From the NCBI GenBank assembly GCA_030390025.1, contig CM059425.1, forward strand, positions 172,112,001 through 172,176,000: a stretch of 64,000 bases of DNA. The letters run 5' to 3'. Positions 9,619 through 55,620 of the stretch are shown here, in pieces. Under the pieces are notes generated by a model. The model ran no database searches and had not been told where the DNA came from. It saw only the letters and a list, made by a program, of their open reading frames with translations. Position numbers and translations under genes: made by a program. The DNA comes from Squalus acanthias. Its lineage: Eukaryota. Each line of letters starts with the position of its first letter. Position 1 is the stretch's first letter.

Positions 9619-9858
9619 TCATGATGCGGAGATGCCGGTGTTGGACTGGGGTGGACAAAATTGAGAGGTCGCACAACACCAGGTTATAGTCCAACAGTTT
9701 TATTTGAAATCACAAGCTTTCGGAACTATCGCTCCTTCCTCAGGTGAAGTAAATTGGATACCAAGTTACTTCACCTGAGGAAGGAGCGATAGTTCCGAAA
9801 GCTTGTGATTTCAAATAAAACTGTTGGACTATAACCTGGTGTTGTGCGACCTCTCAAT
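9619..9858. mobile_element. Non-autonomous fold-back PLE derivative (family 1): two head-to-head pLTR ends
   Basis: 14-bp TSD tttaaaaatagagg (9605-9618, 9859-9872); perfect 96-bp inverted arms 9657-9752 / 9766-9861; sequence nearly identical to the termini of the PLE at 32644-35923. Confidence 0.92.
9771..9808 (+). ncRNA. Minimal hammerhead ribozyme motif (mirror copy on - strand at 9710-9747)
   Basis: tcac CTGAGGA a GGAGC gata GTTCC GAAA GC TT gtga. Confidence 0.8.
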
Positions 9859-9913
9859 TTTAAAAATAGAGGCAGAGAGCACAAAAGCCAGGAAGTTATG
9901 CTAAACCTATATA

Positions 9914-10403
9914 CAGGAAACTCTTGTTTAACCGGCACCTAAATATCCGGAATTCTCTCTTAACCGGCAAAAATCATACTCCGAAAACTCCTCTCAAATA
10001 ACCGGCAATGTTGCCGAGTCCGAGTCTCCCGCGAACGCCGAGTTAGTCAGTGGGGGTAGTTCTCCAAAGTGCCACTACTCGGCCTCCGGGCGCTGTCGGA
10101 AGTCCGAACACTGCAGTAACAGGAGTCTGATTCTCCCGCGCTGCCGGGAGTCTCACTTACTGTTAAGTAATTAAAGAGTTATGGATTACCCTCAACTGGC
10201 AGTACTGTACTTAATCAAGCATCTTCCACCATCCATTTAACACAACATTCTGTAGGTGAGTAACCAAATACTGTATACTGCACATTTCTTGATTTTTTTA
10301 TGTTAAAAATAGCCTCGGTAGATATAACTCTCCGTTATCCGGAACTTTCGATCAACTGGCACCACGCCGGTCCCGTCGGTGACGGATACCAAAGAGTTTC
10401 CTA
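9914..10403. mobile_element. Tigger/pogo-type (Tc1-mariner) MITE nested in CR1
   Basis: TA|caggaaactcttgtttaaccggcacc ... ggtgacggataccaaagagtttccta|TA: imperfect ~26-bp TIRs and TA duplication. The CR1 (aacctata|taaaacact) rejoins across it. Confidence 0.82.
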
Positions 10404-11269
10404 TAAAACACTAGTTTGGCCACAGCTGGTGTATTGTGTTCAATTCTGGACACTGCACTATAGGAAGGATGTGAAGGCTTTGGACAGGGTACAGAAGAGA
10501 TTTACTAGAATGGTTCCAGGGTAGAGAAGCTGGGGTTGTTCTCCTTGGAGCAGAGAAGGCTAAGAGGAGATTTGATAGAGGTGTTTAAAATCATGAGGAG
10601 TTTAGATAGAGTGAATAAAGAGAAACTGTTTCCAGTGGCTGAAGAGTCAATAACGAGAGGGCACAGATTTAAGGTGATTGGCAAAAGAATCAGAGGCGAC
10701 ATGAAGAAAATCTATTTTACGCAACGAGGGGTTAGGATTTGGAAAGCACGACCGGATAGGGTGGTGGATACAGATTCAGTAGTAGCCCTCAATAGGGAAT
10801 TGGATAAATACTTGAAAGAGGAAAAAAATTGAAGTGATATAGGGAAAGAGTGGGGGAGTGGGACTAACTGGATTGCTCTTCGAGGGAGCCGGCGCAGACT
10901 CGATGGGCTGAATGGCCTTCTGTGCTGTACTATTCTATGATTCTAAAAGTTACCATAGATTAAATAAAATGCCAATTTATGCACCGTTTGGTTTGGGAGT
11001 GACCAGGAGGGTTTGGAATCGGTCATAATGGAGCAGAGTTTGTGGTGGGGGCTAAAAATGATTGTTTTGGTCTTCCTGCTTTTGAGTTGGAGGAGCTTGT
11101 CACTCATCCAAGACTTGATTGAGATAAGTGCTGAATTGATAGGGCAGGGTCTCAGCAACATGTGTGAAAGCTGACCCATGCCCACAGATGACTTCACTGA
11201 GGGTGAAATTAAAAGAGACTTGCGAGACTCCAACAAATGCAGAACAGCAATTAACAGTGTCAGTGGAAT

Positions 11270-12390
11270 GCTGAATTAAATAACTAACAAGGTGCCACAC
11301 AAGATTGGGTTGGGGGTAATATATTAGCATGGATTGAGGATTGGTTAACTGACAGAAAACAGAGTAGGAATAAACTGGTCATTTTCAGGATGGCAGGCAG
11401 TAACTAGTGGAGTACCACAAGGATCAGTGCTTCGATGAAGGGACTGAGTGTTATATATCCAAGTTTGCTGACAATACAAAGCTAGGTGGAAATCTAAGCT
11501 GTGAGGGGAACACAAAGTGTCTGCAAATGAATATAAGCAGGTTACGTAATTGGGCAAGAAGGTGGCAGGTGGAGTATAATTTGGGGAAGTGTGAAATTAT
11601 CCACTTTGGTAGGAAGAATGGAAAAACAGAATTTTTTTTTAAAAGGTGAGAGACTAATAAATGTTGATATTCAGAGGGATTTAGGTGTCCTTGTACATGA
11701 ATCACAAAGTTAACATGCAGGTACAGCAAGCAATGAAGGCAAATGGTATGTAGCATTTATTGCAAGGTGGTTGGAGGACAAGAGTAAGGAAGTTTTGCTG
11801 CAATTATGTAGGGCTTTGGTGAGACCACACCTGGAGTGCTGTGTACAGTTTTGGTCTCCTTTCCTAAGGAAGAATACACTTCGCTTGGAGGCAGTGCAGC
11901 GAACGTTCACCAGTTTGATTCCTGTGATGAGAGGGTTGTCCTATGAGAGGAGATTGTGTAGAATGGGCCTATACTCTCTGGAATTTAGAAGAATGAGAGG
12001 TGATCTCATTGAAACATATAAGATTCTGAGGGGGATTGACAGGGTAGATGCTGAGAGGCAGTTTGCACTGGCTGGAGAGTGTAGAACTCGGGATCATAGT
12101 CTCTGGATAAGGGGTCGGCCATTTAGGACTGAGTTGAGGAGAAATTTCTTCACTCAGTGGGTTGTGAATCTTTAGAATTTTCTAACTCAGAGGGCTGTGG
12201 ATGCTCAGTCGATCAGTATATTCAAGACTGAGTGATTGATAGATTTTTAGGCACTAAGGGATTCAAGGGATATGGGTATAGGGCAGGAAGGTGGAGTTGA
12301 TGTACAAGTTCATCCATGATCTTATTGAATGGCGGAGCAGGCTCGAGGGGTACATACGGCCTACTCAGGCTCCTATTTCTTGTGTTCTAA
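11270..12390 (+). mobile_element. 5'-truncated CR1 LINE
   Basis: ISKFADNTKLGG, ALVRPHLE, RRMRGDLIE, CR1 3' end. Confidence 0.9.
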
Positions 12391-13269
12391 GACAGTGGGA
12401 ATCATAAAACTGTATCAAGCATTGGATGTAATGTTGAGAAGAGCCATGAGGCTGATCCCAAATGTAAGAGATGCTGAGGAACGACTGGAGAAATTTGGGA
12501 TGCACAGACTTGTACAGAGGCACCTGAGAGCTGATCTTTTCAGAGGTACATCAAATAGTTTTTAAATTTGTTCATAGGATGTGGGCAATGCTTGCAAGGC
12601 TGCATTTATTGCCCATCCCGAGTTGCCCTTGATAATGGTTAGCCAGCATCTTAAACTGTTGCAGTTACTGTCGTCATGATGCTTCCACTATGATGTCAGG
12701 GAATTTCAAGAGTTTGACTAAGTGCCAGTGGGTGGCGGGGAGGAGAATGTTGTTCCCACGACATTGCAGCTCTTGTCCTTCTCGGTATAGAGGTTATGGG
12801 GCTGGTAGGAGCTCTCGAACTAACTAGTTAACAATATGGAAAAAGTAAATCTGGAAAATTGCTTCAAACTAAATTGCAACAGCAGGCCAAGGGTCTCTGG
12901 TTCAAACTTGTAAAAGGCAAATTTCAAGAAGTTCTTCCTTGTACAAAGAGTGATCAATACATGGAGTGGATTTCCAGATGGGATAGCAATGCCGAAAACC
13001 TAAACTAGCTTCCAGTTGGATGCTGTAAAGGGGGGACTTTAGGGTCTTTACGAAAAGATGAGCTGAATGGCCTTCCTCATCTGCAGTTATGATGCCATTT
13101 TGTGACGTGGCAAAGCCAGATCTGGAGATTGATGACTAAGCCAGTTGTGTGCCAAATACATTCAAACTTGAGGGTGTGAAGATGGGGACCATAGTAGGGA
13201 AGCAAGACAGGAAAAAATACATCCTGCAACAACATAGATTGCATATTCAAACATGGGTAAAACTAGAGA

Positions 13270-13670
13270 ATTACATAGAATTTACAGCACAGAAACAGGC
13301 CATTTGGTCTAACAGGTTTATGCTGGTATTTATGCTCTTCATCTCACCCTATCAACATATCCTTCTATTCCTTTCTCCCTTGTGTACTAGCTTCTCCTTA
13401 AATGCATCTGTTATTCACCTCAACCACTCCATGTGGTCATGTGTTCACATTCTCACTACTCTCTGAGTAAAGAAGTTTTTCCTGAATTCCTTATTAGATT
13501 TATTATTGACTATATTACATATATGAGCCCTAGTTTTGAACTCCCCACAAGTGGAAACATCTTCTCCGTCTACCCTATTTAACCCCTTCATAATTTTATA
13601 GACTTCTAATCAGTCACCTCTGTCTTCTCTTTTCGAGAAAAGATCCCCAGCCAGTTCAGTCTTTCATGAT
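13270..13670 (-). mobile_element. CR1 3' fragment
   Basis: Similar to the 4594-5000 CR1 end (acatagaatttacagcacagaaacaggcc...). Confidence 0.75.
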
Positions 13671-14198
13671 CGTTGCAAATGGGGTACTTGATTGTGCCCT
13701 AAAGGAGAGTTGAGAGGAGAAAAACAGTCGGTGCATACAGACAAGTTAGGGATATTGAGGAGCTGATTTGAGGATGTGGCTAATTCTGGAACAAATTTAA
13801 GTTCCATGTAGTCATGGTTGAAAAACTTATGCAGAATTGTAAAACTAAAACTAAGAAGGGAATCACTAAACAGCCAATTACTAATAAATAATGTAGAGTC
13901 ACATTTGTTTAAAAAAAACCTCCCAACTCCACACCAACGGAAGATTTAAAAAACTCAATTGAAGCATAGGAGTGTCATCAAGGGAATGACACAAACCTAG
14001 TCATTCAGCTTCATTTCCAAAATGGTATTCAGGAAAACTTTGAGCCAGGGTAGAGCACTTGTTAATGAATTGCATTGGTTTCTATCCATTCTTTCTGTGT
14101 GGACCAGGACAGTGAGTGTTGGCAGGCTATTTGACCTTCGAAGTGTCACAGCTAAACCTGAGCCTGTCCGCAGTTGAAAACCATACAAGTACTTTCTA

Positions 14199-14885
14199 CA
14201 ATAGCAAAATACTACGGATGCTGGAAATCTGAAATAACAACAGAAAATGCTGGAAACACTGAGCAGGCCAGGCAGCATCCGTGGAGAGAGAAACAGAGTT
14301 AACCCTTCGTCAGAACCATAAAAAGTTAGGGATGTAACAGGTTTTAAGCAGGTGCAGAGGCAGGGAAAGGTGGTGGGGAGGGGAGGAAGGGACGGTCTGT
14401 GCTAGAATGGAAGGCAAGAGAAATTAAATGTTGCAAATGGGGATGGCAGAATCATCAACCGCTGCCACCTGAAAAATTGGGGTCAGGGGTTATTGTCTGA
14501 AATTGTTAAACTCAATGTTGAGTCCAGAAGGCTGTAAAGTGCCTAATCGAAAGATGAGGTGGTGTTCCTCGAGCTTACATTGAACTTCATTGGAACAATG
14601 TAAGAGGCCGAGGACAGAGAGGTCGGAGTGGAGCGGAGAATTAAAGTGACAAGCGACCAGTCCCGGAATTTACCATTCTAGCACTGACCGTCCCTTTAGT
14701 TCCTTCCTCCCCTACCGCCCCCCCCCCCCACCCCCTTTCCCTGCCTCTGCACCTGCTTAAAACCTGTTACATCCCTAACTTTTTCCAGTTCTGACGAAGG
14801 GTCACAGACCTGAAACGTTAACTCTGTTTCTCTCTCCACGGATGCTGCCTGGCCTGCTGAGTGTTTCCAGCATTTTCTGTTATTT
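14199..14885. mobile_element. Fold-back PLE-like non-autonomous element (family 2)
   Basis: 13-bp TSD caagtactttcta (14186-14198, 14886-14898); long imperfect inverted arms (~14233-14410 vs ~14675-14885); left arm about 30 nt longer; hammerhead motif inside. Confidence 0.88.
14787..14823 (+). ncRNA. Minimal hammerhead ribozyme motif
   Basis: agtt CTGACGA aGGGTC aca GACCT GAAA CG TT aact; palindromic AACGTT. Confidence 0.8.
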
Positions 14886-16049
14886 CAAGTACTTTCTAGC
14901 TTGGTTTAATGGGTAACTGTATGAAGCAAGTACTGTTGTGGATTTGTTATTAATTGTTCTTGTTTATGGAAATTAATTATTAATGGGACATCCATATTTG
15001 AAAGATTTTAGACTTTTTTTCTTTGCCGCTTCCCAAAAGCATACTGCAAAACATGAAATTTATTCTGTATTCATATCTACATGGATCTTTTCCAAGTACT
15101 TTCAAACTCTGCTTAAAATGACTGTTGTACATGACTGTAAGATTTCCCCACAATTATCTATTCACTATGATCTAAAAATTGTTAATTTATTGTCGCCTGA
15201 TCTTTGGAACTGTCAAAACCAGCAAAGTTGGTAAGTTTTGGAATAGTTGCTTTTTTTGTAGAAAAAGTGAAAGGTAGGTTAGTTGCATGATGAAAGGATT
15301 CTGGTTTTTCAGTTGTTTGTAGTTTAGTAATTGTTTCTTAGAACCGAGGATAATTTGAACTTCAAACAACTGTACCTTAAATGTAATATTGAAAATCTGG
15401 GAATACTAGTCAGTTTGGACAAACGGAATTCATAATTGAATGTCCCCTTCAGTTGTTTCTTCACTGTGGGCCCCTCCATGCTAAGCTGTTCTGCAGTCAT
15501 ATTTTGTTTGACCAAACAACTTCCTGGTGGTGATTTTGATGTTTTGCAGTTCAGGACATCCTGGGCCTGACCATTTTCCTTTACTCTAAGAACTTTTATA
15601 TTTTACAATTGCAGTAAATTTTTTAAACGGTGTTTTCCAATTTCCCCCAGTCCTATCCCCCCCACCAATTTTTCTCCTTTCTGAAAGGCAAGTGATTCAT
15701 GTTGGGGGTGGTGTGATGGCAGTGGGACTTTATGAGCAGTGGTGGACGGACGTCTTGAACCTTGCTCGAGTCCATTATTGACTTGTGAGCCGAGACAGTT
15801 GAAGTGGGGTGGTGGTTGGGGAAGAGGCCCAGCCAAACCCGATGCAATTTTCACACAAGCTCACCTTTCTAGTAGTTGTCGCTGGATCATAATTGGGATG
15901 GGAAGCCTAGTGTTTTTTTTAAAGCTTCCTGCCCTCCAGCTCAGACACTTGGGTTGGTTACAATGCTCAGTTGACACCTGTCTGAGATCAGCCAAGTAAA
16001 CACTTACCAGGGATCAAGTCTCACCTACTTAGTTTATTGGCTTCTCTTC

Positions 16050-18897: not shown

Positions 18898-19589
18898 AAT
18901 ATCACCTAGGTTTTGCATTTATACAGCAGGCCATTTGGGGAACTCTTTCTTTCCTGTTCCTTACACAATTATGAGGGAGTTTTTTTCACCGTGGGATCAG
19001 AATACACATGTGACATGTTATCTTGTACTTTATTTTTCTGATTGCTAAATAGGTGTGAAATTTGTACACCAGAGAAGTAAAGTTTTAGTTATTTATGTCT
19101 TCCTATTTATAAAGACCTAAACTATGACTATAATAGATGGCCAGATAGTGATGATCAAAACTTTTTGTGCCTTAAATGTGGTACAATTTTAAATAGTGGA
19201 AAAAATATAGACTACCTTTCTAAAACAAGTATGAATCACTTGGAAACATCCAAGCCCCATTTACAGGTCTCGAAGTTGTATGTTGCTTTCATAATGTTTT
19301 AAAAAATTGAATGCTGTGCATTGGCCAAGAGCAGTCCCTACCAATCCAATATATTTAAAACATTTTTAAAACAGCTGGCCTCCTTTTATCAGAAGTTTAA
19401 TTTTCATCCTATTTTCCATGTCCAGACTGCACTGAAGCAGGATGCCTCAACACTCTCTTTCTACTTTTCATTGCACTCATTTGAATATTTCTCAGGCATT
19501 GGGACACCCAAGCATTTAATGGCTTTCTAAAGCTGTTTAATATATGTAAAGCCTGATTTGTAGAATAACTTGTAGTTTGTTTAACTTCG

Positions 19590-20157: not shown

Positions 20158-20844
20158 ATATTGCTGGTAGAGCTGATGGTGGGTGGAGAGAAGGATCCTG
20201 GCTAATTGGAATTGAAAATGCAGTTGAAATCCTATTACGTGTGTCTTGTGAGACCATCCATTACATGTAAGGACACATCTGCAAATTCCGGATTTCCGCG
20301 TTTCACTGCGCATGTGCGTACTCTGGATCTTGCTGTCCGATTTACTCCATAATAACTCTGAGCGCTGATAGCCTCATCGTTATTCTCAATGCAAAATCCA
20401 GGCCATTGTCTCAGTCAGTTTGCCTGTGTATCTATGAATATCTTGTTACCTCAATAATTAATTTGACCAGATTTCAAGAACTGAAAAAATGTTCAAAAAC
20501 TTTAAAAAAAAATTGATATTGGAGTTCTGAAGAAGAATTATGATTTTAGATTTAATTTGAAAAAATATTAATGTGTGCTACTTTTAGATCCATTTTCAAC
20601 AATGTTCAGTCACAAAATGGAATTTCCTTCTTCGAGAGTTTTTTTTAACCTCTGCAGTGGCAACTTCTTTGAGTGCATTTTAATTCATTTTAGAATTATT
20701 CATCTGATTTTTTTCCTCCTAAAATTCCAACATTAGATTTTTTTAATGAAGGGACTTCTCGTAATTATAGTTTATAAATAACCTTGTTTCATCAAATATC
20801 CAGTTACACGTGTTGGTTTGCTGACAGATATGGTGTACATTGTT

Positions 20845-21713: not shown

Positions 21714-21720
<7 letters not shown>

Positions 21721-21748
<28 letters not shown>
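21721..21748 (+). repeat. (CT)14 microsatellite
   Basis: Direct reading. Confidence 0.95.
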
Positions 21749-21752
<4 letters not shown>

Positions 21753-22147
21753 CCAATCTTTCTTCCCTCTTTATTTCTCTTTCTGTATTGAATTTCTCTC
21801 ATTCACCCTATTTGGGTGTACAGGACACAACTTCAAAATTTGCAGAGGACACAAAACTTGGAAGTATAGTGAACAGTGAGGAGGATAGTGATAGACTTCA
21901 AGAGGACATAGACAGGCTGGTGGAATGGGTGGACACGTGGCAGATGAAATTTAACGCAGAAAAGTGCAAAGTGATACATTTTGGTAGGAACAACGTGGAG
22001 AGGCAATCTAAACTAAAGGGTACAATTCTAAAGGGGGTGCATGAACAAAGAGACCTGGGGGTATATGTGCACAAATCGTTGAAGGTGGCAGGGCAGGTTG
22101 AGAAAGTGGTTAAAAAAGCATACGGGATCCTGGGCTTCATAAATAGA

Positions 22148-22278
22148 AATGAGAAGTCGCACAACACCAGGTTATAGTCCAACAGATCTATTTAAAATTA
22201 CAAGCTTTCGGCGCTATCGCCCCTTCGTCAGGTAAAGTTACAATGAGTGAATCTACAAAAGTTCACAGAATATAAACA
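22148..22278 (-). mobile_element. 5'-truncated PLE 3' end (family 1 variant) inserted in CR1
   Basis: Shares gagaagtcgcacaacaccaggttatagtccaacag with the other PLE ends; imperfect 10-bp TSD cataaataga/cataaatcga (22138-22147, 22279-22288). Confidence 0.85.
22198..22235 (-). ncRNA. Minimal hammerhead ribozyme motif with compensatory stem I
   Basis: Reverse complement: ttac CTGACGA a GGGGC gata GCGCC GAAA GC TT gtaa. Stem I is ttac/gtaa versus tcac/gtga in the other copies. Confidence 0.8.
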
Positions 22279-23589
22279 CATAAATCGAGGCATAGAGTAC
22301 AAAAGCAAGGAAGTTATGATGAACCTTTATAAAACACTGGTTCGGCCTCAACTGGAGTATTGTGTCCAATTCTGGGGACCGCACTTTAGGAAGGATGTGA
22401 AGGCCTTAGAGAGGATGCAGAAAAGATTTACGAGAATGGTTCCAGGGATGAGGGGCTTCAGTTACGTGGATAGGCTGGAGAAGCTGGGGTTGTTCTCCTT
22501 CGAACAGTGAAGGTTAAGAGGAGATTTGATAGAGGTGTTCAAAATCATGAGGGGTCTGGACAGAGTAGATAGAGAGAAACTGTTCCCATTGGCAGAAGGG
22601 TTGAGAACCAAGGGCAATTAGGAATAGGCAATAAATGCTGGCCTTGCCAGTGATGCCTACATCCCATGAACGAATAAAAAAAAAAAAAACCAGAGGACAC
22701 AGATTTAAGGTGAATGGCAGAAGAACCAAAGGTGACATGAGGAAAAAATGTTTACGCAGCAAGTAGAATGCAATGCCTGAAAGGGCGGTAGACGAGCTGA
22801 AGTGCTCTTGCAGAGAAACGGCACGGGCTCAACGGGCCGAATGGCCTCTTCTGTGTTGTAAGCATTCTATGATTTTTTTTGTTTCTTTATCTTTAAATCT
22901 CATTGGTAAAGAGATGGACTGTTAGTCCCCTCATTCACCAAGTTCCCAGATGCCCATTGACCTTGCTGCTCGGTTACCAGTTCGCACTACCAGCAATGAG
23001 TGGCGCAAATGTTTTTTCAAGCTGAAGAGTAAGTAAAATAATCTAACAAACAGGGAACACTGCAAGATGCCCTGCTGCAGCAAATTCTGGGCCATAGTTC
23101 CTTATTTGTTCAGCTCCATTATAAAATAAGAAATTCATGTCCTCCTGTTGGGTAGGGGAAAGGAAATACCAGAGATTTTTCTTCAATTGCATTGTCCCAT
23201 ACTGATATCAGGTCCTCATCCCTTCCCCATATAAATGTGCTTTTCTGAGCTATATCTTCAGTTCTTTTTCATCTGTTGATTCTGCTCACAAATAAGCTTC
23301 CACTTGATCTTCATTTTGTTAGTGTTAGCTTATTTTTAAGGTGTAAAATGTTTGCAGAAATATTTTTGCCTTGGGTGGTGCATGCTTAGCAAATGTTTCA
23401 GTTCTGGTCTTCCTGTTCGAGTTTTTATTTACATATTTTTTTCAGGATCAGTGTCTAAGAACTGGAGTGAACCTTTATATACCCCATTCTTGGTAATAGT
23501 GAGCCCAGGAGTTGAACAGAAGCACTTAAACTTATTTAGTTTACTAGATGCAACACAAGCCCTCTTATGACCGTTATTTCCAAAAGGCA

Positions 23590-28575: not shown

Positions 28576-28579
28576 TCGT

Positions 28580-29886: not shown

Positions 29887-30411
29887 ACGATAGCAAAATA
29901 CTGCGGATGCTGGAAAATTGAAACAACAACAGAAAATGCTGGAAAAACTCAGCAGGCCAGGCAACATCCGTGGAGAGAGAAACAGAGTTAACGTTTCGGG
30001 TCGAAACCCTTCGTCAGAACTGAGAAAAGAGCAGGAAATGAAACATAAAAATGCTGGTCGGAGGGGGGAGGATAACTATACATTTTATCCACCCTTTTGG
30101 TTCGTGCCTTTTTCCTTTTTTTCTCTCTCTCTCCCCCTACAGGCAGCTGTCTCTCATTCTGCCAGCATTTCACACTTCACCTTTTGTTTCTTAACCTGTC
30201 CCATTACCATCTCGTCTTGCCTTGAGCATCTCTTCATGTCTCTACTTACCATAGTTATTCCCCCCCTCCCCCCAGCCTCCCCCTTGCATTTTTATCTGTT
30301 TCATTTCCTGCTCTTTTCTCAGTTCTGACGAAGGGTTTCGACCTGAAATGTTAACTCTGTTTCTCTCTCCACAGATGTTGCCTGGCCTGAGTTTTTCCAG
30401 CGTTTTCTGTT
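29887..30411. mobile_element. Fold-back PLE-like non-autonomous element (family 2) inserted in a SINE
   Basis: 13-bp TSD gtgccacatcttt (29874-29886, 30412-30424); inverted arms ~29927-30050 / ~30288-30411. Confidence 0.88.
29986..30021 (-). ncRNA. Minimal hammerhead ribozyme motif (second copy on + at 30321-30356)
   Basis: Reverse complement: agtt CTGACGA a GGGT ttcg ACCC GAAA CG TT aact; stem II is capped by a UUCG tetraloop. Confidence 0.82.
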
Positions 30412-32040: not shown

Positions 32041-32733
32041 TATACAAATTTTTAAACATTGAATATGGGCAAAATTCCCTTCAAAAGTTGACGGCTCCAA
32101 AAAAGTTCTGAATGTAGGTCTTGTGACACACTAAAACAGGAATTGGACTGTGTGCAGTGGAACTTGGATTTATCATGAACATATTATCGTAAACGTAAAA
32201 TAAAAGCAATGAGATCATGCTAGAACTTTATAAATCACTGGTTAGGCCTCCGTTGGAGAATTGTAGACCATTCTAGGCACCACACTTTTTAGGAAAGATG
32301 TCAAGGCCTTAGAAAAGGTAGAGAGGAGGTTTACCAGAATGTTACCAGAGATGATGGACTTCAGTTATGAGGAGGGGTTAGAAAAGTTAGGACTGTTCTT
32401 ACGAACAATGGCGGACAAGTAAAGACCATCTAGTCCATCGGGCCTGTCCCCCACAATTGCGATATCTTGTGTATCACAACAAATGCACTCCACCCACCCG
32501 AAACCACGTGATGATCTGGGAGAGGCAAAAAAAAATTAAAAACTCAGGCCAATTTGGCAGGAAAAAAAATCGCCTTAGAACAGAGAAGACTAAGTGGTAA
32601 CCTAATAGAGGTTTTCAAGATAATGAGAGGTTTTGATAGAGTACATGATGCGGAGATGCCGGTGTTGGACTGGGGTGGACAAAATTGAGAAGTTGCACAA
32701 CACCAGGTTATAGTCGAACAGTTTTATTTGAAA

Positions 32734-32775
32734 TCACAAGCTTTCGGAGCTATCGATCGCCCCTTCCTCAGGTGA
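32734..32775 (-). ncRNA. Minimal hammerhead ribozyme motif in inverted pLTR
   Basis: Reverse complement: tcac CTGAGGA a GGGGC gatcgata GCTCC GAAA GC TT gtga. Stem I tcac/gtga, stem II, palindromic AAGCTT in place of stem III. Confidence 0.8.
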
Positions 32776-32914
32776 AGTAAAGAGATACAGAATCGCCAAA
32801 GCAATCGATAGCTCCGAAAGCTTGTGATTTCAAATAAAACTGTTGGACTATAACCTGGTGTTGTGCGACTTCTCCGTTTTGTCCACCCCAGTCCAACACC
32901 AGCATCTCCGCATC

Positions 32915-35590
32915 ATGACCACTATCGACACCACAAACTGCAGGCTCAAAGTGGAGAGAATCGCAAGAAGATCGCGCATATCGACACCGACATCAAGTAT
33001 CTACAGAGATGCAAGAAAGCAGACAAGATCCCGAAAGGACTACAGATCACGAACCCACTCAAGTCGACATACAACACAGACTACGCTGAGAGACTCTGCC
33101 GTCGTACCTCTCGCACACTCCTCAACCATCTCGTACACCAGCTCTACAGCAAACGCCACAACCTCGAAACCAAGATAGAGTCCATGCTCTCAGCCTGTGC
33201 TCAGGACACAGCAGACCAGCTACGAGACACCGCCAAACAGACGAGGCAACGGAACTACGCTGCCTACATGCGCATCAAGAACAGGAAGCTTGAGAAACTC
33301 GGCGTAACCACCAGCAGCAACCAAGCCTCCCCCGGTACCACGGCTGCAACCACAGGGAAGTCCATCGTCAACTTGTCCGACCATACCCTCCAACCAGACG
33401 AAATCGAAGTTCTCGCCCTAGGGCTCAAGTTCTGCCCCACCACCAAAATGGACCCCATCGGTCTCGCGGCAGACACAGAGGAATTCATCAGGAGAATGAG
33501 GCTCCGGGAATACTTCCACAAATCCCAAGATGTCAGCAACAAACCCAATGAGACAATCAATGATCCAGAACAGCAGACAGAGGGACTCGCAGTGCAGCAA
33601 CCGAAGAAAAAAGAGTCAAACTGGACCCCTCCGGAGGGTCGCTGCCCCAAGCTTGACATGTATGCTCAAGCTGTCAGGAGATGCATCAACGCCAGATTCA
33701 TCAGCCGCACTCAAGACAGTCCAGAATGTCACCCGAGCACAACGCAACGCCATCCACGCTCTCAAGACCAACCGCAACATCGTCATCAAACCAGCGGACA
33801 AAGGAGGAGCCATCGTCATACAGAACAGAACGGACTCTTGTAAAGAAGCATACCGACAACTGGACAACCAGGAACACTACAGACAGCTACCCGCAGATCC
33901 GACCAAAGAACACACCCGCCAACTCAATAGACTGATCAAGACCTTCGATCCAGACCTTCAAAACATCCTACGCGCTCTCATCCCACATACTCCCCGCGTG
34001 GGAGACTTCTACTGCCTCCCAAAGATACACAAAGCCAACATACCCGGACGTCCTATCGTATCAGGTAACGGAACCCTGTGTGAGAACCTCTCTGGATACG
34101 TCGAGGGCATTCTGAAACCCATCGTACAGGGAACCCCCAGCTTCTGTCGCGACACTACAGACTTCTTACAGAAACTCAGCACCCACGGACCAGTTGAACC
34201 AGGAACACTCCTCGCCACGATGGACGTATCGGCACTCTACACCAGTATCCCCCACGATGACGGCATCGCTGCGACAGCCTCAGTACTCCACACCAACAAC
34301 AGCCAATCTCCAGACGCCATCCTACAACTCATCCGCGCCATCCTTGACCACAATGTCTTCACCTTCGACGACCATTTTTTTACCCAAACACACGGAACAG
34401 CCATGGGGACCAAATTCGCACCCCAATACACCAACATCTTCATGCACAAGTTCGAGCAAGACTTCTTCGCTGCACAGGACCTCCAGCCAACGCTGTACAC
34501 CAGATACATCGACGACATTTTCTTCCTTTGGACCCATGGCGAAGGATCACTGAAAAGACTACACGATAACATCAACAAGTTCCATCCTACCATCAAACTC
34601 ACCATGGACTACTCCTCAGAATCGGTTTCATTCCTGGACACACGAATTTCCATCAAAGACGGACACCTCAGCACTTCACTCTACCGCAAGCCCACGGACA
34701 ACCTCACGATGCTCCACTTCTCCAGCTTCCACCCTAACCATGTTAAAGAAGCCATCCCCTATGGACAAGCCCTGCGAATACACAGGATCTGCTCAGACGA
34801 GGAGGAACGCGATGGACACCTACGGACGCTGAAAAACGCCCTCATAAGAACGGGATATGACGCTCGACTCATCGATCGACAGTTCCGACGGGCCACAGCG
34901 AAAAATCGCATAGACCTCCTCAGAAGGCAAACACGGGACACAACCAACAGGGTACCCTACGTCGTCCAGTACTTCCCCGGAGCGGAGAAACTACGCCATG
35001 TTCTTCGCAGCCTCCAACATGTCATCGATGACGACGAACACCTCGCTAAGGCCATCCCCACGCCTCCACTACTTGCCTTCAAACAGCCGCCTAACCTCAG
35101 AAGTACCATCGTTCGCAGCAAATTACCCAGCTTTCAGGATAACAGCGACCACGACACCACACAACCCTGCCACGGCAACCTCTGCAAGACATGCCAGATC
35201 ATCAACACAGATACCATCATCACACGTGAGGACACTACCCACCAGGTACATGGTACATACTCATGTGACTCGGCCAACGTTGTCTACCTCATACGTTGCA
35301 GGAAAGAATGCACCGCGGCATGGTACATCAGCGAGACCATGCAGACACTGAGACAACGTATGAACGGACACCGCGCAACAATCGCCAGGCAGGAGTGTTC
35401 CCTCCCAGTCGGGGAACACTTCAGCAGTCAAGGACATTCAGCCTCGGATCTGCGGGTAAGCGTTCTCCAAGGCGGCCTTAGAGACACACGACAACGCAAA
35501 ATCATCGAGCAGAAACTGATAACCAAGTTCCGCACTCATGAGGACGGTCTCAACCGGGATCTTGGGTTTATGTCACGATACATGACGTGA
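32915..35590 (+). pseudogene. PLE reverse transcriptase + GIY-YIG endonuclease ORF with two frameshifts (~32963, ~33710)
   Basis: Motifs KPADKGG, LPKIHK, GRPIVS, DVSALYTSI, GTAMG, RYIDD, FLD; Cys-rich linker PCHGNLCKTC; GIY-YIG NVVYLIRC...WYISET...RQRMNGHR...EHF...GLN. The reading frame is split over ORF-track entries 32843, 32863 and 33530. Confidence 0.93.
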
Positions 35591-35832
35591 TCCGGACTCG
35601 AGTCATCGTTGGCTTGTTCACAGATGTGATTCCCAGTAAAAAAGTAAACATTTTAAAGTTTATCGTTTTACATACAGACTGCAGCTTTTGACACGTTAGA
35701 CCCCCTGTGACTCCACCTCATTGTCTCAGTTGTATCTTGCTATGTCTTTGATGTGACCTGATTGTTTATCTGCCGAGGTGTGACAAAAGGCAGTCAGGGT
35801 GATTTAAATGTAGTCGTCTGCTTTTGTAAGTA

Positions 35833-35874
35833 ACACATGAGGAAGGGGCGATCAATAGCTCCGAAAGCTTATGA
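35833..35874 (+). ncRNA. Degenerate minimal hammerhead in 3' pLTR (core C mutated to A)
   Basis: acac aTGAGGA a GGGGC gatcaata GCTCC GAAA GC TT atga. Confidence 0.6.
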
Positions 35875-37769
35875 TTTCAAATAAAACTGTTGGACTATAA
35901 CCTGGTGTTGTGCGACTTCTCAATTTTGATAGAGTAGATCAAGAATACCTATTCCCTTTAGCAAGTGGGTCAATAACTAGAGGTCATAGATTTAAAATCA
36001 TTGGCAAAAGATCTCGGGGGAGAGATAAGGAGAAACTCTCTCTTCTCTCCTCCCCCCCAGAGTTGTTGGGATCTGGAACACTCTACCTGAAAAGTTGTTG
36101 GAAGTTGATTCCAGAAATAATTTTAAAAGGCAGTGGGACAGGTATTTGAGGATGAGGAACTTACAGGGTTACGGACAAAAGTGGGTATGTCGGTTGAAGC
36201 ACGACTGGATTTTCAAAGAGCCAGCACAGGCATGACGGGCCGAATGGCCTCCTTCTGTGCTGTAAGTTTCTATGATTCTAAGCTGCAGGTGTGTTGGGAC
36301 TGTCCGTGTAAACCTTGATGGTGTTTTCTGGTTCTGTGTTACTAATGAATATCAAATTACTTTCATTATGGGAAGGATCCTAAAGAACACAACTGTTGAC
36401 ACTTTGGTATATTTCTTTCTGGGATTTTGGCGCTTACTGTAAAATAATTTTCACCTGAAAGTGTTCCAAATGTTTTAAATATGATAATTGTGCGAACTTC
36501 ATTACAACTTTACAGTGGGAATCTAACCCCAGATCTAACTTTCATTTGTAAACTGAAACCTTTTGCATCGCACCGACAATCCCCAACTGACTGCAGTCTA
36601 TATTTGTAAGACAAAACTGGATCATTTTTGCATCTGTTCCTGTCCTGAACTCTGTCAGCTGAGAGACAGCCAGCGATTTCACAGATTGAGAGTATGCTGA
36701 TTTAATAATTAAAACTTTTTTTGAACAACCTTCAGAAATAGTGTCACGTTCATGTCGTCAAAAATAAAAGTTTCAACTTGAGTTCTGATAAAGGTTTATA
36801 CTGAAGTATTGATTTATCTCTTTTTTTCCTTTTTAGGCATAAATTCACTGTGCATTTAAAACACTTTATTTTGAAAGTTACAATACATGAGCTGAAAAAT
36901 GACTTGACAATAATAACAGATGAACATTTAATGTGTTTATATGCGCTCCTCTGTCCACTATTCGAATAATGAGATTAACCCACTTAATATAAACTGATTA
37001 ATGTCTCAGTTAAAACAGCAAATGGAATAATTATGTATTCGCATTCAAGAACATCCTTATCTCAAAAAAGTGTCTAACTCGTCTCGCAGAACATAATTCT
37101 TTATATGCAAGAGAACAGCTTGGCATGCTCCAGAACTTTGCTTTCAGGACAATGGAGTTTTAAAAGTTAGGTTCTAACAGTTCATTTGTTATATATAATT
37201 ATTTGGGGGGAAAAATAATGAATAAGTACTCCTGCAACTGACCCTCCAAAGCCATCAGCTCATCTCCTATCTCAGGGTTTTTGTGCAATCAGGCTCTAGT
37301 CCTACTCTCTAACTGATCTGGTTGGTTCACTGCCAACCTTGGTACACATGAAAAAAATGTGTTTTTGTGTTAAATTTTAACGAGCTGTCACACTGGTTAA
37401 AATATGGCCCATCAGTCCAACACTAATGCATGCATTTTTTCTTGTATGTAGAGTTGAACTACTTTGGTATGGTAGGTAAGCTTGCCATTTTCATTTGTAG
37501 TCACTCTAATATTGGTCAACTTGCTTCTACAATTAAGTGATAAGTCATTTTCAAAACTGAGACGTTAAATTCGAGCAAGCTTCGCCAAAGATATGTAGTT
37601 TGAATCCATGTTGTTCTAGTGTAAATACAAACTTTGTCTTGGTGCATTTTCTACAGAAGAAGAATAATATCTTTTACTGTTTCACTTATTTTTCAGAACA
37701 AGGGACATGCTTTAATCAGTTGGTGCTGAAGTCGCTTTTAGCACTGGATATTGTAGTGCCTTATTCAAC

Positions 37770-44600: not shown

Positions 44601-44608
44601 AAAGGGTC

Positions 44609-47222: not shown

Positions 47223-47322
47223 GTAACGAAGACTGAACTTGAAAAGCTGAAGTCTGCCTACAGGCAGTTAGCAAAAGAAGCCACCACTGCCAAGGAAAAA
47301 TATAAAGAAGCCATTTCAAAAG
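47223..47322 (+). CDS. fer: FER coding exon 3 (F-BAR); too short for the ORF track
   Basis: gtatttag|GTA ACG AAG; [33 protein letters not shown]+G; AAG|gtaact; 100 nt, phase 0/1. Matches recalled [19 protein letters not shown]...KEKYKEA. Confidence 0.95.
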
Positions 47323-50300: not shown

Positions 50301-51005
50301 TATTGAGTTCGAAAGTGATTTAGTTAAATCCGAAACTAGGGTCTTGAGTGAAAACAAAGCAAACTACGTAGGTATGAGGGGCGAGTTGGCTAAGGCAGAT
50401 TGGAAAACTACATTAAAAGGTATGATGGTAGACAAGCAATGGCTAGCATTTAAAGAATTAATACATAATTTACAACAAATATACATTCCTTTTAAGGCAC
50501 AAAAACCCCATAGGAAAAGTGGTCCAACCGTGGCGAACGACAAGTTAAAGATAGTATTTGATCAAAGGAAGAGGCTTATAATGTTGCCAAAAAGAGTAGC
50601 AAACCTGGGGATTTTAGAATTCAGCAAAGGAGGACCAAGAAATTGATGAAGAAAGGGAATGAAAATAGAATGAGAGTAAACTAGCGAGAGACATAAAAAC
50701 AGACTGTAAAAGCTTCGATAGTTATATAAAAAGGAAAAGATTAGCGAAAAGTAAATGTGGGTCCCTTACAGGCTGAGACAGGAGAAATGATAATGGGGAA
50801 TAAGGAAATGGCAGAGAAATTAAACAAATACTATGGGCTCTATTTTAATAGCCCTGAGGGGGCGGGTTTGGAGGCGGGTTAGCTGCGAAAATCGGGAAAA
50901 AATGGCTTCAGGCACCCAACCCGCCCCCATGCGATTATCGTGAGTGTCTGTTCAGCTGCTTCCAAACTGACCCGACTCCAGTTTGGGACAGGTAGTTAAG
51001 GCAGG

Positions 51006-52080
51006 TTTTTTTTTGTTTATGGGATGTGGGCGTCGCTGGCAAGGCCAGCATTTATTGCCCCATCCCTAATTGCCCTTGAGAAGGTGGTGATGAGCCGCCG
51101 CCTTGAACCGCTGCAGTCCATGTGGTGAAGGTACTCCCACAGTGCTGTTGGGGAGTTCCAGGATTTTGACCCAGCGACGATGAAGGATCGGCGATATACT
51201 TCTAAGTCAGGATGCTGTGTGACTTGGAGGGGAACTTGGAGGTGGTGGTGTTCCCATACGCCTGCTGCCCTTGTCCTTCTAGGTAGAAGAGGTCGCGGGT
51301 TTGGGCGGTGCTGCTGAAGAAGCCTTGGCGAGTTGCTGCAGTGCATCTTGTAGATAGTACACACTGCAGCCACGGTACACCGGTGGTGGAGGGAGTGAAT
51401 GTTTAAGGTAGTGGATGGGGTGCCAATCAAGCGGGTTGCTTTGTCCTGGATGGTGTTGAGCTTCTTGAGTGTTGTTGGAGCTGCACTCATCCAGGCAAGT
51501 GGAGAGTATTCCATCACACTCCTTACTGTGCCTTGTAGATGGTAGAAAGGCTTTGGGGAGTCAGGAGGTAAGACACTTGCCGCAGAATACCTAGCCTTTG
51601 ACCTGCTCTTGTTGCCGCAGTATTGATGTGGATGGTCCAGTTAAGTTTATGGTCTATGGTGACACCCCCAGGATATTGATGGTGGGGGATTCAGTGATGG
51701 TAATACTATTGAATGTCAAGGGGTGGTGATTAGACTCTCGTTTGTTGGAGCTAGTCATTGCCTGGTACTTCTGTGGTGCGAATGTTACCTGCCATTTATC
51801 AGCCCAAGCCTTAGAAGTCGTCCAGGTCTTGTTGCATGCGGGCATGGACTGCTTCATTATCTGAGGGGTTGTGAATGGCACTGAACACTGTGCAGTCATC
51901 AGTGAACATCCCCATTTCTGACCTTATGTTGGAGGGAAGGTCATTGATGAAGCAGCTGAAGATGGTTGGGCCTGGGACACTGCCCTGAGGAACTCCTGCA
52001 GGCAATGTCCTGGGGCTGTGATGATTGACCTTCAACCACCACAACCATCTTCCTTTGTGCGAGGTATGACTCCAGCCAGT
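51006..52080 (-). mobile_element. 5'-truncated second-family LINE nested in the Harbinger
   Basis: [39 protein letters not shown]; near-identical to 25735-26810. Confidence 0.92.
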
Positions 52081-52385
52081 TAAGAGCCTGTTAACTGCCT
52101 TGATGATAATCCTATTTTGATAGTGGTTTCCCATTTTCATGCCTCTGGCTCATGTCTCCCATCTTGTCAGAAACGGTCCAGCTGCAAGGAGATGAGTTGG
52201 TGGAGGATATGATATGTAGTCATTATTGGTGCAGAACAAGTGCTCCTGTAACATGGCTGACATTCAAATGCAACAACTTTGTTGTTGGAGGTTTGCGATA
52301 AGATTTTGCAAATCTACTGACCTCGTGCCTGGTCAAGCTGACACTCATCTGCTGTGTGAACTGATTGGAATAATTTCAGGCCACT

Positions 52386-52688
52386 TTGTGTGTGCGCGCT
52401 TGCAAGCTTCTTGCCTCAACTGAAATCTATAACAACGGGATGGGAACCATTTACATCCTCTCATCCTGGTCGTCTGATTCGGAGGAAGAGCAGCGCGGCT
52501 TAGTGCTGCCGGATGAACAAGTGGCTCAGCACACAGCCTCCTTGCAGGAAGAGGACGAGGAGGAGGAGGATGAGCAGGAGGACGGGGAGTGCCGCCTTGC
52601 GGATCTGGATGTGGCCAATTCAGCAGCAGGCGACTACATTGATGGCCGTCAGGCAAGGGATGCACTCATCCATGCCAGATTTGTGTAA
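52386..52688 (+). pseudogene. Harbinger (HARBI1-like) transposase C-terminal fragment
   Basis: Acidic tract followed by GRQARDALIHARF*, resembling Harbinger transposase C-termini; located inside the TIRs. Confidence 0.55.
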
Positions 52689-52869
52689 GCTAACGCTTCA
52701 GCCACAAGTGACTGGCACATGAAGATGACTAAGTCTGACATTCTCAAACCCCAGGCATCATCTGTCCAATAAATGGTGGTTTGCGCTCAGTGTCACCACC
52801 ATCATTCTACATGGAAATCGCCCTGAGCCCTCACTCTTGAACTTCCATTTGCCAGAACACAGAGGCCAC

Positions 52870-53111
52870 ACTTTAGGTGATCTCAGCAGATCATTAAACC
52901 TTTTCCCACACTAAACCCATGTGCGTCTGCACACCGACATCGAGCTCACCTCCTCAGCAATTTGCAGCCAAGTTGCCTTGGTTTGCTGAGGCGGCCTCCT
53001 CCTTCTGTTTCCAGGGAAGAGGAGCTCCTGACGTCTTCTAACTCCCTCAACAAGAGCATGGAGAGAGCCCTAATTGAACCTGGGTGCAGCCTCAGTTTTT
53101 GGGGTTGCCAT
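52870..53111 (-). pseudogene. Myb/SANT-like DNA-binding protein remnant (Harbinger accessory ORF)
   Basis: Manual translation MATPKTEAAPRFN*GSLHALVEGVRRRQELLFPGNRRRRPPQQTKATWLQIAEEVSSMSVCRRTWV*CGKRFNDL, the RF..LV..V..LF..W..IA..V..R...KRFNDL trihelix pattern, with two stops. Confidence 0.8.
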
Positions 53112-55394
53112 TCCTGCAGCTCCCAGCACCTTTAAGAGAAAAAAGCATTAATATTACTAAGCAAATGATTGGAACAAATCTGGCATATTTTTCAATTCAT
53201 AGTCAGATAATAAAGTCATATATCAAAAAATCAAGAATCTCTTCTGGAATAATATGACCAGCAATATCATTCATTAAATTTTGCTCAGAACAGACGCTGT
53301 CAACTCCCCTTTCTATATAATAAAGCACCAAGCCATCCGAATGACATTTTTTGTAAAGGGGACATGGCCCCGTTAAATTTTCAAACAAACAACGCGTCAT
53401 CAGACGTGAGAAACTGACATCCTCCAAGCAATTGCCTGGAGGGACCCGCATGTCTGCCGTAACGAGGCCAATGAAGCAAAAATCAGAACTGCGGGCCGGC
53501 GGCATCCAGGTGCGGGTCCGAAAGCTGCCGAGCAGCGGGCCCACCCTCAACTCGCCTCTGTTATTAAAATCGAGGCCAATGTGTCTTTCTTCACGGAAGA
53601 AGACGCAAAAACCTCCCGGAAATAGTGGAGAACCAAGGCTCTAGCGAGAATGAGGAACTGAAAGAAATTGCTAATAGTAAAAAAAAAAAAAGTACTGGAG
53701 AAATTAATGGGACTGAAAGCCGATAAATCCCCTGGACCTGATGGCCTGCATCCTAGGGTTTTGAAAGAGGTGGCTGTAGAGATAGTGGCTGCATTGGTTG
53801 TCATTTTCCAAAATTCCATAGATTCTAGAATGGTTCCCGCGGATTGGAAGGTAGCAAATGTAACCCCACTATTTAAGGAAGGAGGGAGAGAGAAAACGGG
53901 GAACTATAGACCAGTTAGCCTGACATCAGTAGTAGGGAAAATGCTAGAATCTATTAGTAAGGACGTGGTAATAGGGCACTTAGAAAATAATAATAGGATT
54001 GGGCAGAGTCAACACTGATTTATGAAAGGGAAATTGTGTTTGACAGATCTGTTAGAATTTTTTGAGGTTGCAACTTGCAGAATAGATAAGGGGGAACCAG
54101 TGGATATGGTGAATTTGGATTTTCAGAAGGCATTCAATAAGGTGCCACACAAGAGGTTATTAAACAAAATTAGGGCTCATGGGTAATATACTAGCATGGA
54201 TTGAGAATTGGTTAACGGACAGAGTTGGAGTAAAAGGGTCATGTTCGGGTTGGCAGGCTGTAACTACTGGGGTACCGCAAGGATCAGTGCTTGGGCCTCA
54301 GCTATTCACAACCTACGTCAATGATTTGGATGAGGGGACCAAATGTAATATAGCCAAGTTTGCTGCTGATACAAAGCTGGGTGGGAATGTAAGTTGTGAG
54401 GAGGATGCAAGGAGGCTTCAAGGGGATATAGATAGGCTAAGTGAGTGGGCAAGAACATGGCAAATGGAATATAATGTGGAGAAATGTGAAGTTATCCACT
54501 TTGGTAGGAAAAATAGAAAAGAAGAGCATTTTTTTAAATGGTGAGAGATTGGGAAATGTTGGTGTTCAGAGGGACCTGGGTGTCCTTGTACACGAATCAC
54601 TGAAAGTTAACATGCAAGCACAGCAAGCAATTAGGAAAGCAAATGGTATGTTAACCTTTATTACAAGAGGATTTGAGTATAAGAGTAAAGACGTCTTGCT
54701 GCAATTATACAGGGCCCTGGTGAGACCACACCTGGAGTATTGTGTACAGTTTTGGTCTCCTTACATAAGGAAGGATATACTTACCATAGAAGGAGGGCAA
54801 CGAAGGTTCACCAGACTTATTCCTGGGATGGGGGGATTGTCCTATGAGGAGAGATTGAGTCGACTCGGCCTATATTCTCTGGAGTTTAGAAGAATGAAAA
54901 GTGATCTCATTGAAATATACAAAATTCTTACAGGGTTTGACAGGGTAGATGCAGGGAGGATGTTTCCCCTGACTGGGGAGTCTAGACCCAGCGGTCACAG
55001 TCTCAGAGTAAGGGGTTGGCCATTTAGGACTGAGATGAGGAGAAATTTCTTCACTGAGGGTGGTGAATCTTTGGAAATCTCTACCCCAGAGTGCTGTGGA
55101 GGCTCAGTCGTTGAGTATATTCAAGACAGAGATCGATAGATTTTTGAATATTAAGAGATTTGGGGATAGTGCAGGCACGTGGAGATGAGGTAGAAGATCA
55201 GCCATGATATTAATGGCGGAGCAGGCTCGAAGGGCGAAATGGCCTACTCCTGCTCCTATTTCTTAGGTTAAATACATGTTTAACAACATGACAGTGGCTG
55301 CAGAAGTGCAAGACAAGTATGAAATTGTAAAGCCCCAGGCAAAACCACAGATTAGGAGGAATTTTATACTTTTGCTAAACAGTGGATATTTGGA

Positions 55395-55620
55395 ATTAAA
55401 ACATAAAATGCTGGAAATGCTTAGCAGGTCAAACAGCAACTGTGGAGAGAGAAAAACGTTTCAGGTCTATGATCATCAGTTCTGATGAAGGTCATCGACC
55501 TGAAACGTTAACTTTGTTTTTCCTCTCTCCACAGATGCTGCTTGACCTGCTGAGTATTTCCAACATTTTCTGTTTTTGTTTCAGATTTCCAGTATCTGCA
55601 GTATTTTGCTTTTGGATTCA
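55395..55620. mobile_element. Short fold-back PLE-like element (family 2), opposite polarity
   Basis: Imperfect 12-bp TSD tggatatttgga/tggatattttga (55383-55394, 55621-55632); inverted arms with the right arm longer. Confidence 0.8.
55478..55513 (+). ncRNA. Minimal hammerhead ribozyme motif
   Basis: agtt CTGATGA AGGTC atc GACCT GAAA CG TT aact. Confidence 0.82.

Follow-up and report, generated by a model that had tools for sequence, protein, structure and literature searches.

The predicted self-cutting RNA motifs carried by Penelope-like elements (PLEs) form an established class, described in 2014, and a circle model has been proposed for the hammerheads of these elements (PMC4209133). The part of PMC8557442 used here describes the role of PLE hammerheads as unclear and reports that Naiad PLEs, which have no hammerheads, still form partial tandems. 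In vitro, insertion was unaffected by hammerhead mutants (PMC11167929). In LINE-1 an extra G marks capped full-length insertions, according to the portion of PMC11702581 consulted. We analysed a 64,000-nt window of Squalus acanthias DNA, together with genome-wide copies of the families found in it. What this analysis adds is that many short copies begin at the front edge of the hammerhead motif with an excess of G, and that the motif likely lies at the start of a capped RNA that is usually copied uncut.

The first-pass annotation of the window had named eight minimal hammerheads, and all eight are present at the positions and on the strands it gave, each with the CUGANGA/GAAA/UH core in type I order (Table 1). 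Six insertions account for them, two inverted pairs being among these. A ninth, damaged hammerhead absent from that list lies in the 3' pseudo-LTR of the longest element, and truncated arms were also seen near 14300 (-), 32801 (+) and 55470 (-). A structural descriptor returned eight matches in the window, consisting of seven of the named motifs and one chance match at 20527; the motif at 22198 was missed because of its stem II mismatch. Six matches were strict. Thirty simulated windows (first-order Markov) gave a mean of 0.07 descriptor matches (maximum 1) and 0 strict matches. Genome-wide, the family A pattern matched 77,707 times and the family B pattern 23,657 times, and the reversed-pattern controls matched 11 and 45 times, respectively. 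It is virtually certain that the motifs belong to the minimal type I hammerheads (min-HHRs) of PLEs. The nine matches of Rfam covariance models to the window at E<=10 included no hammerhead family; the miRNA-precursor matches among them (E 3e-8 and 1e-6, far below gathering scores) are inverted insertions. Assignment to a non-LTR retrozyme was rejected as well: the window motifs do not form tandem non-coding repeats each with a hammerhead, but are dispersed PLE ends with target duplications.

Table 1. Penelope-like insertions, hammerheads and associated features in the window
Feature	Position	Strand	Details
Family A short inverted insertion, two arms	9619..9858		Inside CR1-type LINE; tail on left arm only
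Target duplication of the 9619..9858 insertion	9605 and 9859		14 bp
Family A hammerhead	9710..9747	-	Predicted cut after 9714; predicted +1 at 9750
Family A hammerhead	9771..9808	+	Predicted cut after 9804; predicted +1 at 9768; arm starts about 2 bases before this +1
Family B inverted insertion	14199..14885		13-bp target duplication; C-terminal end of PLE endonuclease on minus strand
TATA-like TTAAAA	14757..14762	+	Putative promoter element, 30 bases before predicted +1
Family B hammerhead	14787..14823	+	Predicted cut after 14819; first base is predicted +1, in initiator-like context
Family A solo copy, older-type subfamily (TTAC/GTAA stem I)	22145..22278	-	Shares its CR1 site with the 9.6 kb insertion
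Family A hammerhead	22198..22235	-	G.G mismatch in stem II
Family B inverted insertion	29887..30411		13-bp target duplication
Family B hammerhead	29986..30021	-	Within insertion 29887..30411
Family B hammerhead	30321..30356	+	Within insertion 29887..30411; broken palindrome (AATGTT)
Near full-length family A element	32644..35923	+	13-bp target duplication; inverted 5' arm with tail and hammerhead, then truncated 5' hammerhead (from about 32801, +), ORF and 3' pseudo-LTR
Family A hammerhead	32734..32775	-	In inverted 5' arm of element 32644..35923
Damaged ninth hammerhead, family A	35833..35874	+	In 3' pseudo-LTR; changes at C3 and in the first pair of stem I
Family B short inverted insertion	55372..55614		Approximate bounds; target duplication not made out
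Family B hammerhead	55478..55513	+	Starts about 1 base before predicted +1

That these hammerheads sit in pseudo-LTRs belonging to two PLE families was borne out by an RT domain, linker and GIY-YIG-type motifs. Hammerheads stand at both ends of the 32.6-35.9 kb element, and family B motifs follow a PLE endonuclease end. The RT-endonuclease ORF of the near full-length element is frameshifted, with open frames at 32854-33843 and 33500-35590. A C-x4-C-x2-C linker and GIY-YIG-type motifs could be read in both families, between which the ORF pieces share 25-38% identity; Pfam found only RT on the window protein, and GIY-YIG is on record for the best homolog. Neptune-type PLEs are defined, in the sections of PMC8557442 drawn on here, by RT plus a C-terminal GIY-YIG with a C-x2-5-C-x2-C linker. 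By their motifs both families are assigned to this type, the linker being common also to Nematis.

Covariation in the stems had been overstated: double-sided changes are few, the other changes are one-sided wobbles, and the independent events are too few for a significance test. The claim for stem I stands on one true compensation in family A (C-G at 122 loci, T-A at 19 and the T.G intermediate at 6), but the agtt/aact pair cited with it comes from a different family. The family A examples cited for preserved stem II pairing, GGAGC/GTTCC and GGGGC/GCTCC, each depart from GGAGC/GCTCC by a G.U wobble on one side only. In family A two pair changes are double-sided and have wobble intermediates (stem I pair 3 and stem II pair 5); there are also two one-sided wobbles and a single shared break in the terminal pair of stem I. 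Family B has one rare double-sided change, and its first stem II pair is A-U in 54, G.U in 49 and G-C in 1; the corresponding G10.1-C11.1 pair is kept in 139/142 in family A. Both families have an extra unpaired A between A9 and stem II. The palindromic remnant of stem III is present in seven of the eight named motifs, being broken in the one at 30321, and by locus counts it is kept in 141/142 in family A and 84/100 in family B, with losses mostly of the CpG type. The predicted CUU and GUU cleavage triplets, taken earlier to be suboptimal, are not unusual: U17 occurs in about 24 of 56 published min-HHRs (hand count); the part of PMC1636495 consulted has no passage on U17 triplets.

Within the family A core, 10 of 11 columns have no shared variant; variation is seen at N7, at H17 (U or C) and in loop II. 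The 3' flank does not exceed the core in variability (7/49 and 1/11 variable columns, respectively), and the core-conservation test is therefore weak. The U4C core change, which is said to lower hammerhead activity considerably (PMC3088659), is found in about 3,905 copies genome-wide, compared with 222 for all A6 changes together; the hammerhead pattern with A at position 6 still included (73,853) serves only as the denominator.

Copy 5' ends pile up at the front edge of the hammerhead, in 21/141 family A and 10/112 family B loci drawn either from fixed coordinates or from the surroundings of matches to an anchor lying 3' of the cut, with the +1 position picked after the pile-up was seen. Eleven family A copies start at +1 and ten at +2, and none starts within -3..+1 of the cut (138 at risk); in family B five start at +1, five at +2 and two near the predicted cut. 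The start rate per base at -30..-11 fell to 0.0008 for family A and 0.0026 for family B. No report of copy 5' ends piling up at a PLE hammerhead front edge was found in the literature searched. In both families the front edge is an initiator-like A (YYANWYY at +1) lying 29-31 bases behind a TATA-like box, which reads TATATA at -31 in family A and TTAAAA/TTAAAT at -30/-29 in family B. Copy starts are also scattered over +2..+16.

The junctions are genuine, as seen in copies whose start lies no more than 70 bases upstream of the cut, or later. Of 80 in family A, 67 were inverted, 8 had a candidate target duplication and neither was made out in 5; the corresponding numbers for 58 family B junctions were 26, 18 and 14. 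Under a genome-wide filter for AT-rich flanks, family A starts numbered 199 at +1, 6 at +5, 22 at -3 and 26 at the cut, and family B starts 223 at +1, 66 at +5 and 10 at the cut. A looser filter gave 206 starts at the cut versus 58 at cut+3, the filters not being identical and many of the cut starts resembling stem I microhomology or palindrome loss; there may be a small excess of copy starts at the cut site. None of nine ORF-reaching family A copies starts at +1, and six extend upstream of it.

In copies with AT-rich flanks, the base before +1 was G in 156/199 cases in family A and 111/223 in family B (p 5e-31 and 2e-4, against a G background of 0.30-0.38). Hand counts at control positions gave G in 1/6 at +5, 6/26 at the cut and 3/22 at -3 for family A, and in 17/66 at +5 for family B; the G excess at +1 over these positions had Fisher p 9e-10 and 6e-4 for families A and B. 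Among the family A +1 junctions listed, 54/76-78 were still G (hand count) after removal of 22 G cases templatable by the arm, a tandem or the CR1 target, two tandem repeats among them. In 6 of the 100 junctions listed, and in a 51-bp tandem, the G occupies a place for which the element itself would supply T or A. The +1/G copies among the matches listed are mostly of N7=C subfamilies, and G-marked copies are short, at about 100-150 bases. Thirty family B loci starting at +1 comprised 8 with a target duplication, 15 in which none was made out and 7 inverted; a lone extra G was seen in none of the eight with a target duplication, where there were seven microhomology overlaps and one case with three extra bases. 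The G excess at +1 resembles the cap-derived G of LINE-1, and the copies were therefore likely made from capped, uncut RNA. That +1 is a capped transcription start is, in our judgement, probable.

The best explanation overall, to which we give an even chance, is that the hammerhead lies at the capped start and is copied mostly uncut, and that a rare dimer cut plus circle restores the promoter. The hammerhead would be the first 33-41 bases of a capped transcript from a predicted upstream TATA/initiator promoter. Most RNAs would be reverse-transcribed uncut, from two 'tail' start sites to the cap, which would yield short copies without a promoter, frequently as head-to-head pairs. In 15/17 inverted pairs the tail is on one arm only, a pattern that agrees with two RT start sites and with both strands being extended (PMC11167929). 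With a promoter upstream of +1, linear run-off could not restore it. From time to time the two hammerheads of a single full transcript, the 5' and the 3' one, would base-pair via the palindrome, helped by the element protein, and cut; the cut transcript would then be ligated to a circle, of which a more-than-unit copy would restore the promoter. The prediction that dimer cut plus circle is the purpose of the hammerhead falls just short of an even chance. The joint reading, in which capped starts fall at the hammerhead's first bases, the upstream TATA/initiator is lost in linear copying, a hammerhead pair circularises the rare full transcript and rebuilds a promoter-bearing pseudo-LTR, and the low-activity U4C core suffices, is offered tentatively, as possible rather than probable. 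Pseudo-LTR pairs in seven elements (3/10 pairs were dropped as unrelated insertions) differ at 0 sites in two, at 2-4 in three and at 7-8 in two, a mixed outcome for a circular template. The 24 public RNA runs listed consist of contigs, and the four examined carry no information on starts or ends. Folding predicted lowest-energy dimers without the palindromic stem III, and for family B a preferred hairpin that sequesters the core.

If the +1 start is real, the promoter might instead be restored by template transfer between +1-to-tail repeats, in the manner of retroviral strand transfer, or by read-through of tandem arrays; the hammerhead would then be mainly a protein-binding or folding element whose cutting is dispensable. 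We consider this unlikely, even though few copies start at the cut, some pseudo-LTR pairs differ, the U4C change has spread in young subfamilies far beyond all A6 changes, Naiads thrive without hammerheads and uncut RNA is the dominant in vitro substrate (PMC11167929). The invariance of most family A core columns speaks against dispensable cutting, weakly given the similar 3' flank, and selection on catalysis is indicated by the U3-A8 covariation published for the core. Cutting could also act as a brake, whereby the hammerhead, after protein binding or an RNA-RNA meeting, takes off the cap together with the first 33-41 bases, so that translation ends and the RNA is destabilised. Such a role would suit a hammerhead at the predicted +1, the protein-assisted cleavage of the anole element (PMC11167929), the rarity of cut RNAs as copies and the wide amplification of weak variants (U17, U4C, and the G.U or A-U first stem II pair of family B); it leaves both upstream promoter restoration and the need for a second hammerhead and palindrome unexplained, and appears quite improbable.

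Least of all do we favour a pile-up that is not a transcription start, arising from RT fall-off after the fold, from splicing into family B's pyrimidine-tract/CAG site, from recapped fragments or from microhomology at junctions. Family B does have the splice-acceptor-like TTTTTCCAG at +1, starts do spread over +2..+16, in many cases the junction is an inverted arm able to template a G, and the target-duplication cases have no lone G. However, family A has no AG at +1, the G excess survives restriction to AT-rich flanks and is not seen at -3, +5 or the cut, and TATA-like boxes stand at the expected distance in two families so dissimilar in protein. The junctions with G in place of the element's own T or A likewise argue against this origin, which we regard as very improbable.

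The reading of a hammerhead at a capped start, mostly copied uncut, draws on about 100,000 young copies, whose junction statistics are an in vivo record of templates. Short copies likely had capped, uncut templates, and a position of the ribozyme at +1 is likely. The junction-statistics test is applicable to any PLE-rich genome without experiments.

As far as the parts of PMC4209133 consulted extend, metazoan PLE min-HHRs (Cervera & De la Pena 2014) have the same CUGANGA core with an additional base following A9, stems I and II of 4-5 bp, the palindromic 15.2-16.2 and frequent U17, and they likewise occur in both pseudo-LTRs, as solo copies and as opposite-strand pairs; the painted turtle min-HHR also reads GAAA-GC-UU. 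Cartilaginous fish were not found among the supplement examples in those parts, nor was a description of the start-site position, G excess or U4C subfamilies. The matches in Squalus acanthias number about 100,000, compared with 4,000-9,000 in coelacanth and frog there, and most family B copies, unlike those min-HHRs, carry a G.U or an A-U as the first stem II pair. In Anolis carolinensis, the Poseidon element (Frangieh et al. 2024, PMC11167929) shares two RT start sites bounding the tail, extension of both strands, AT-rich targets, uncut RNA as the main substrate and no RNA ends at the cut. Its ORF starts inside stem II, whereas the ATG of the Squalus families is about 90 bases 3' of the predicted cut; the Neptune-type linker of the Squalus families is a further difference, and the evidence on Poseidon comes from purified protein rather than genomic copies. 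The Penelope element from Drosophila virilis (Schostak et al. 2008, PMC2377424) shares a start site inside the pseudo-LTR and a hammerhead near the RNA 5' end, and a partial tandem needed for expression is listed as shared; it has an internal promoter without a TATA box, and its hammerhead is preceded by 46 bases and a 75-bp intron, whereas the Squalus families have a predicted upstream TATA/initiator promoter and a hammerhead at +1. LINE-1, in the portion of PMC11702581 cited, shares the 5'-junction G excess in full-length insertions, read as a copied cap, and inversions from priming on both strands; its G-marked insertions are full length, whereas those of Squalus are the short copies described here.

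The eight minimal hammerhead motifs listed in the first-pass annotation were found in the window sequence at the positions and in the form claimed, and exceed chance expectation: a descriptor returned 8 matches (seven of the named motifs and one chance match), whereas 30 Markov simulations averaged 0.07. They derive from six insertions of two PLE families, A and B; target duplications of 13-14 bp are clear at four of them, a fifth shows a 7-bp match and the sixth has no clear duplication. Patterns with a fixed core and a few fixed stem bases, scanned across the 3.7-Gb genome, gave 77,707 family A matches versus 11 with the reversed control pattern, and 23,657 versus 45 for family B. As a type, the eight motifs are ordinary further examples of the hammerhead class described in 2014. 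The long hairpins formed by two inverted insertions receive weak Rfam scores as miRNA precursors and could be a source of small RNAs.

Coordinates of features (window positions unless a locus is named)
Feature	Position	Remarks
Near full-length family A copy, frameshifted	32644-35923	RT domain; linker and endonuclease motifs
Family A insertions at the CR1 site	9605-9872, 22138-22290; loci L225, L236, L240, L241, L247, L260, L285	
Inverted PLE insertions	55406-55568, 32708-32853	
Broken LINE copies	11.3-12.4k, 16.1-17.8k, 21.9-24.7k, 25.7-27.3k, 49-52k, 53.7-55.2k	
Long family B ORF remnant	L056:3968-5810	two hammerheads ~3.2 kb apart; best available B reference
Three 51-bp tandem units	G000:C3:139350736-139350866	each G + predicted +1 + whole family A hammerhead

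All 122 scored genome matches to the family A copy were 97-100% identical and many had 921-codon open frames, indicating that family A is young. A PLE endonuclease end precedes the family B motifs, and the family B ORF pieces share 25-38% protein identity with A. Both families have a C-x4-C-x2-C linker, a feature of Neptune/Nematis-type elements (PMC8557442). Family A has inserted recurrently at one AT-rich site within a CR1-type LINE, which adjoins 12 of 143 family A arms (7 loci) and occurs 6 times in 400 kb of fixed-coordinate DNA; CR1 copies host all three family A insertions of the window. The remaining window is mostly broken LINE copies, presumably CR1-like types, two of which gave RT matches, and no host exon was identified in it. 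At least six coded organisms (runs X1-X8, X19-X24) share about half or more of the words of the family A 5' sequence, which may reflect close relatives or transfer.

The stem covariation reported earlier is genuine in alignments of family A and B copies, but few events lie behind it. In family A (201 parsed of 274 copies, from loci that include sets chosen for near identity and for the core change U4C, so that the counts do not reflect frequencies in the genome), stem I pair 3 was C-G at 122 loci, T-A at 19 and T.G at 6, and stem II pair 5 was C-G at 118, T-A at 12 and T.G at 10. Pairs II.3 and II.4 showed one-sided changes to G.U, and the terminal stem I pair was broken in 11. The first stem II pair of family B was A-U in 54, G.U in 49 and G-C in 1 (117 parsed of 176 copies). 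Core position 17 was other than U in 10,476 family A matches; a hand count of the first 100 listed showed C in 98. CpG decay could have been the origin of U17, which occurs in ~24 of 56 published minimal hammerheads (hand count, from the part of PMC4209133 supplement file 2 consulted). U4C had 3,905 matches, mostly a few recurring stem II/loop variants, compared with 222 for all A6 changes and 73,853 standard-pattern matches. Some U4C subfamilies are joined to 98%-identical ORFs and several have a compensated stem II T-A (L301-L330, L133, L134, L141). According to PMC3088659, U4C lowers activity yet still allows viroid infectivity.

If cut RNA served as template, copies would be expected to start at the cut. 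The 5' ends of copies found via an anchor 3' of the cut were mapped at 180 loci: L031-070, taken at fixed coordinates, and L161-300, centred on anchor matches from a single chromosome arm. In family A (n=141, two of 143 copies being left out for failed alignment), 21 starts lay at +1 or +2, where +1 is the predicted RNA start at the hammerhead front edge, 41 lay inside the hammerhead and none fell within -3 to +1 of the cut; the corresponding family B counts were 10, 29 and 2 of 112. The copy-start rate drops ~10- to 60-fold upstream of -10, and the start junctions are mostly inversions or have candidate target duplications. Genome-wide, with an AT-rich-flank filter and with +1 chosen after the data were seen, family A starts numbered 199 at +1, 6 at +5, 22 at -3 (from a subfamily-restricted pattern, numerous point mutants included) and 26 at the cut; family B had 223 at +1, 66 at +5 and 10 at the cut. 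A purine-flank filter gave 863 starts at +1 versus 131 at +5. Speaking against a start at +1, a looser filter gave 206 at the cut versus 58 three bases later. The commonest family A inverted junction genome-wide forms a near-perfect palindrome with the +1 base at its centre, the arrangement expected if two cDNA ends were joined at the RNA start.

With regard to TATA and initiator consensus motifs, the +1 base lies within YYANWYY in both families, with TATATA at -31 in A and TTAAAA/TTAAAT at -30/-29 in B. Among AT-rich-flank starts, G preceded +1 in 156/199 (A) and 111/223 (B), versus a background frequency of 0.30-0.38 across 400 kb taken at fixed coordinates and hand counts at control positions of 1/6 (+5), 3/22 (-3) and 6/26 (cut) in A and 17/66 (+5) in B. 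With the purine-flank filter, G was hand-counted in 91 of the first 100 listed at +1 and 64 at +5. In LINE-1, an extra G has been interpreted as a copied cap (PMC11702581). Several points speak against the same reading here: a lone extra G was seen in 0 of the 8 family B copies whose target duplication could be resolved (of the 30 in this check, 15 lacked an identifiable duplication and another 7 lay in inversions), the +1/G class is drawn mostly from subfamilies with C at core position N7, and the RNA data examined consisted of contigs only. The 51-bp tandem is possibly a nascent retrozyme-like array.

The tail, a segment bounded by two RT start sites, is present on a single arm in 15 of 17 inverted pairs, which, together with PMC11167929, suggests that RT begins at either end of it. 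RT would then likely continue as far as the capped end of an RNA that had not been cut, and copies ending there would lose the upstream promoter. None of nine ORF-reaching copies starts at +1 and six extend past it, so active daughters would need a template of more than one unit. Our favoured route is paired cutting by both hammerheads of one full transcript followed by copying of a circle, the dimer-cut and circle route proposed in PMC4209133. Strand transfer or tandem read-through may instead supply the active daughters; as a further alternative, the hammerhead may act as a decapping brake. The active dimer is not the preferred structure in predicted folding, consistent with reported low activity. 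Pseudo-LTR pairs gave a mixed picture in seven elements: two had identical pairs, three had pairs with 2-4 differing sites and two had pairs with 7-8.

No statement of a PLE hammerhead at a capped +1, or of a G on copies there, was found in searches of paper listings or in passages of the papers cited above and of PMC6765202, PMC2377424, bioRxiv 2026.07.22.740005 and PMC11371274. A hammerhead near the 5' end is already known in the D. virilis element, where a TATA-less start and an intron precede it.
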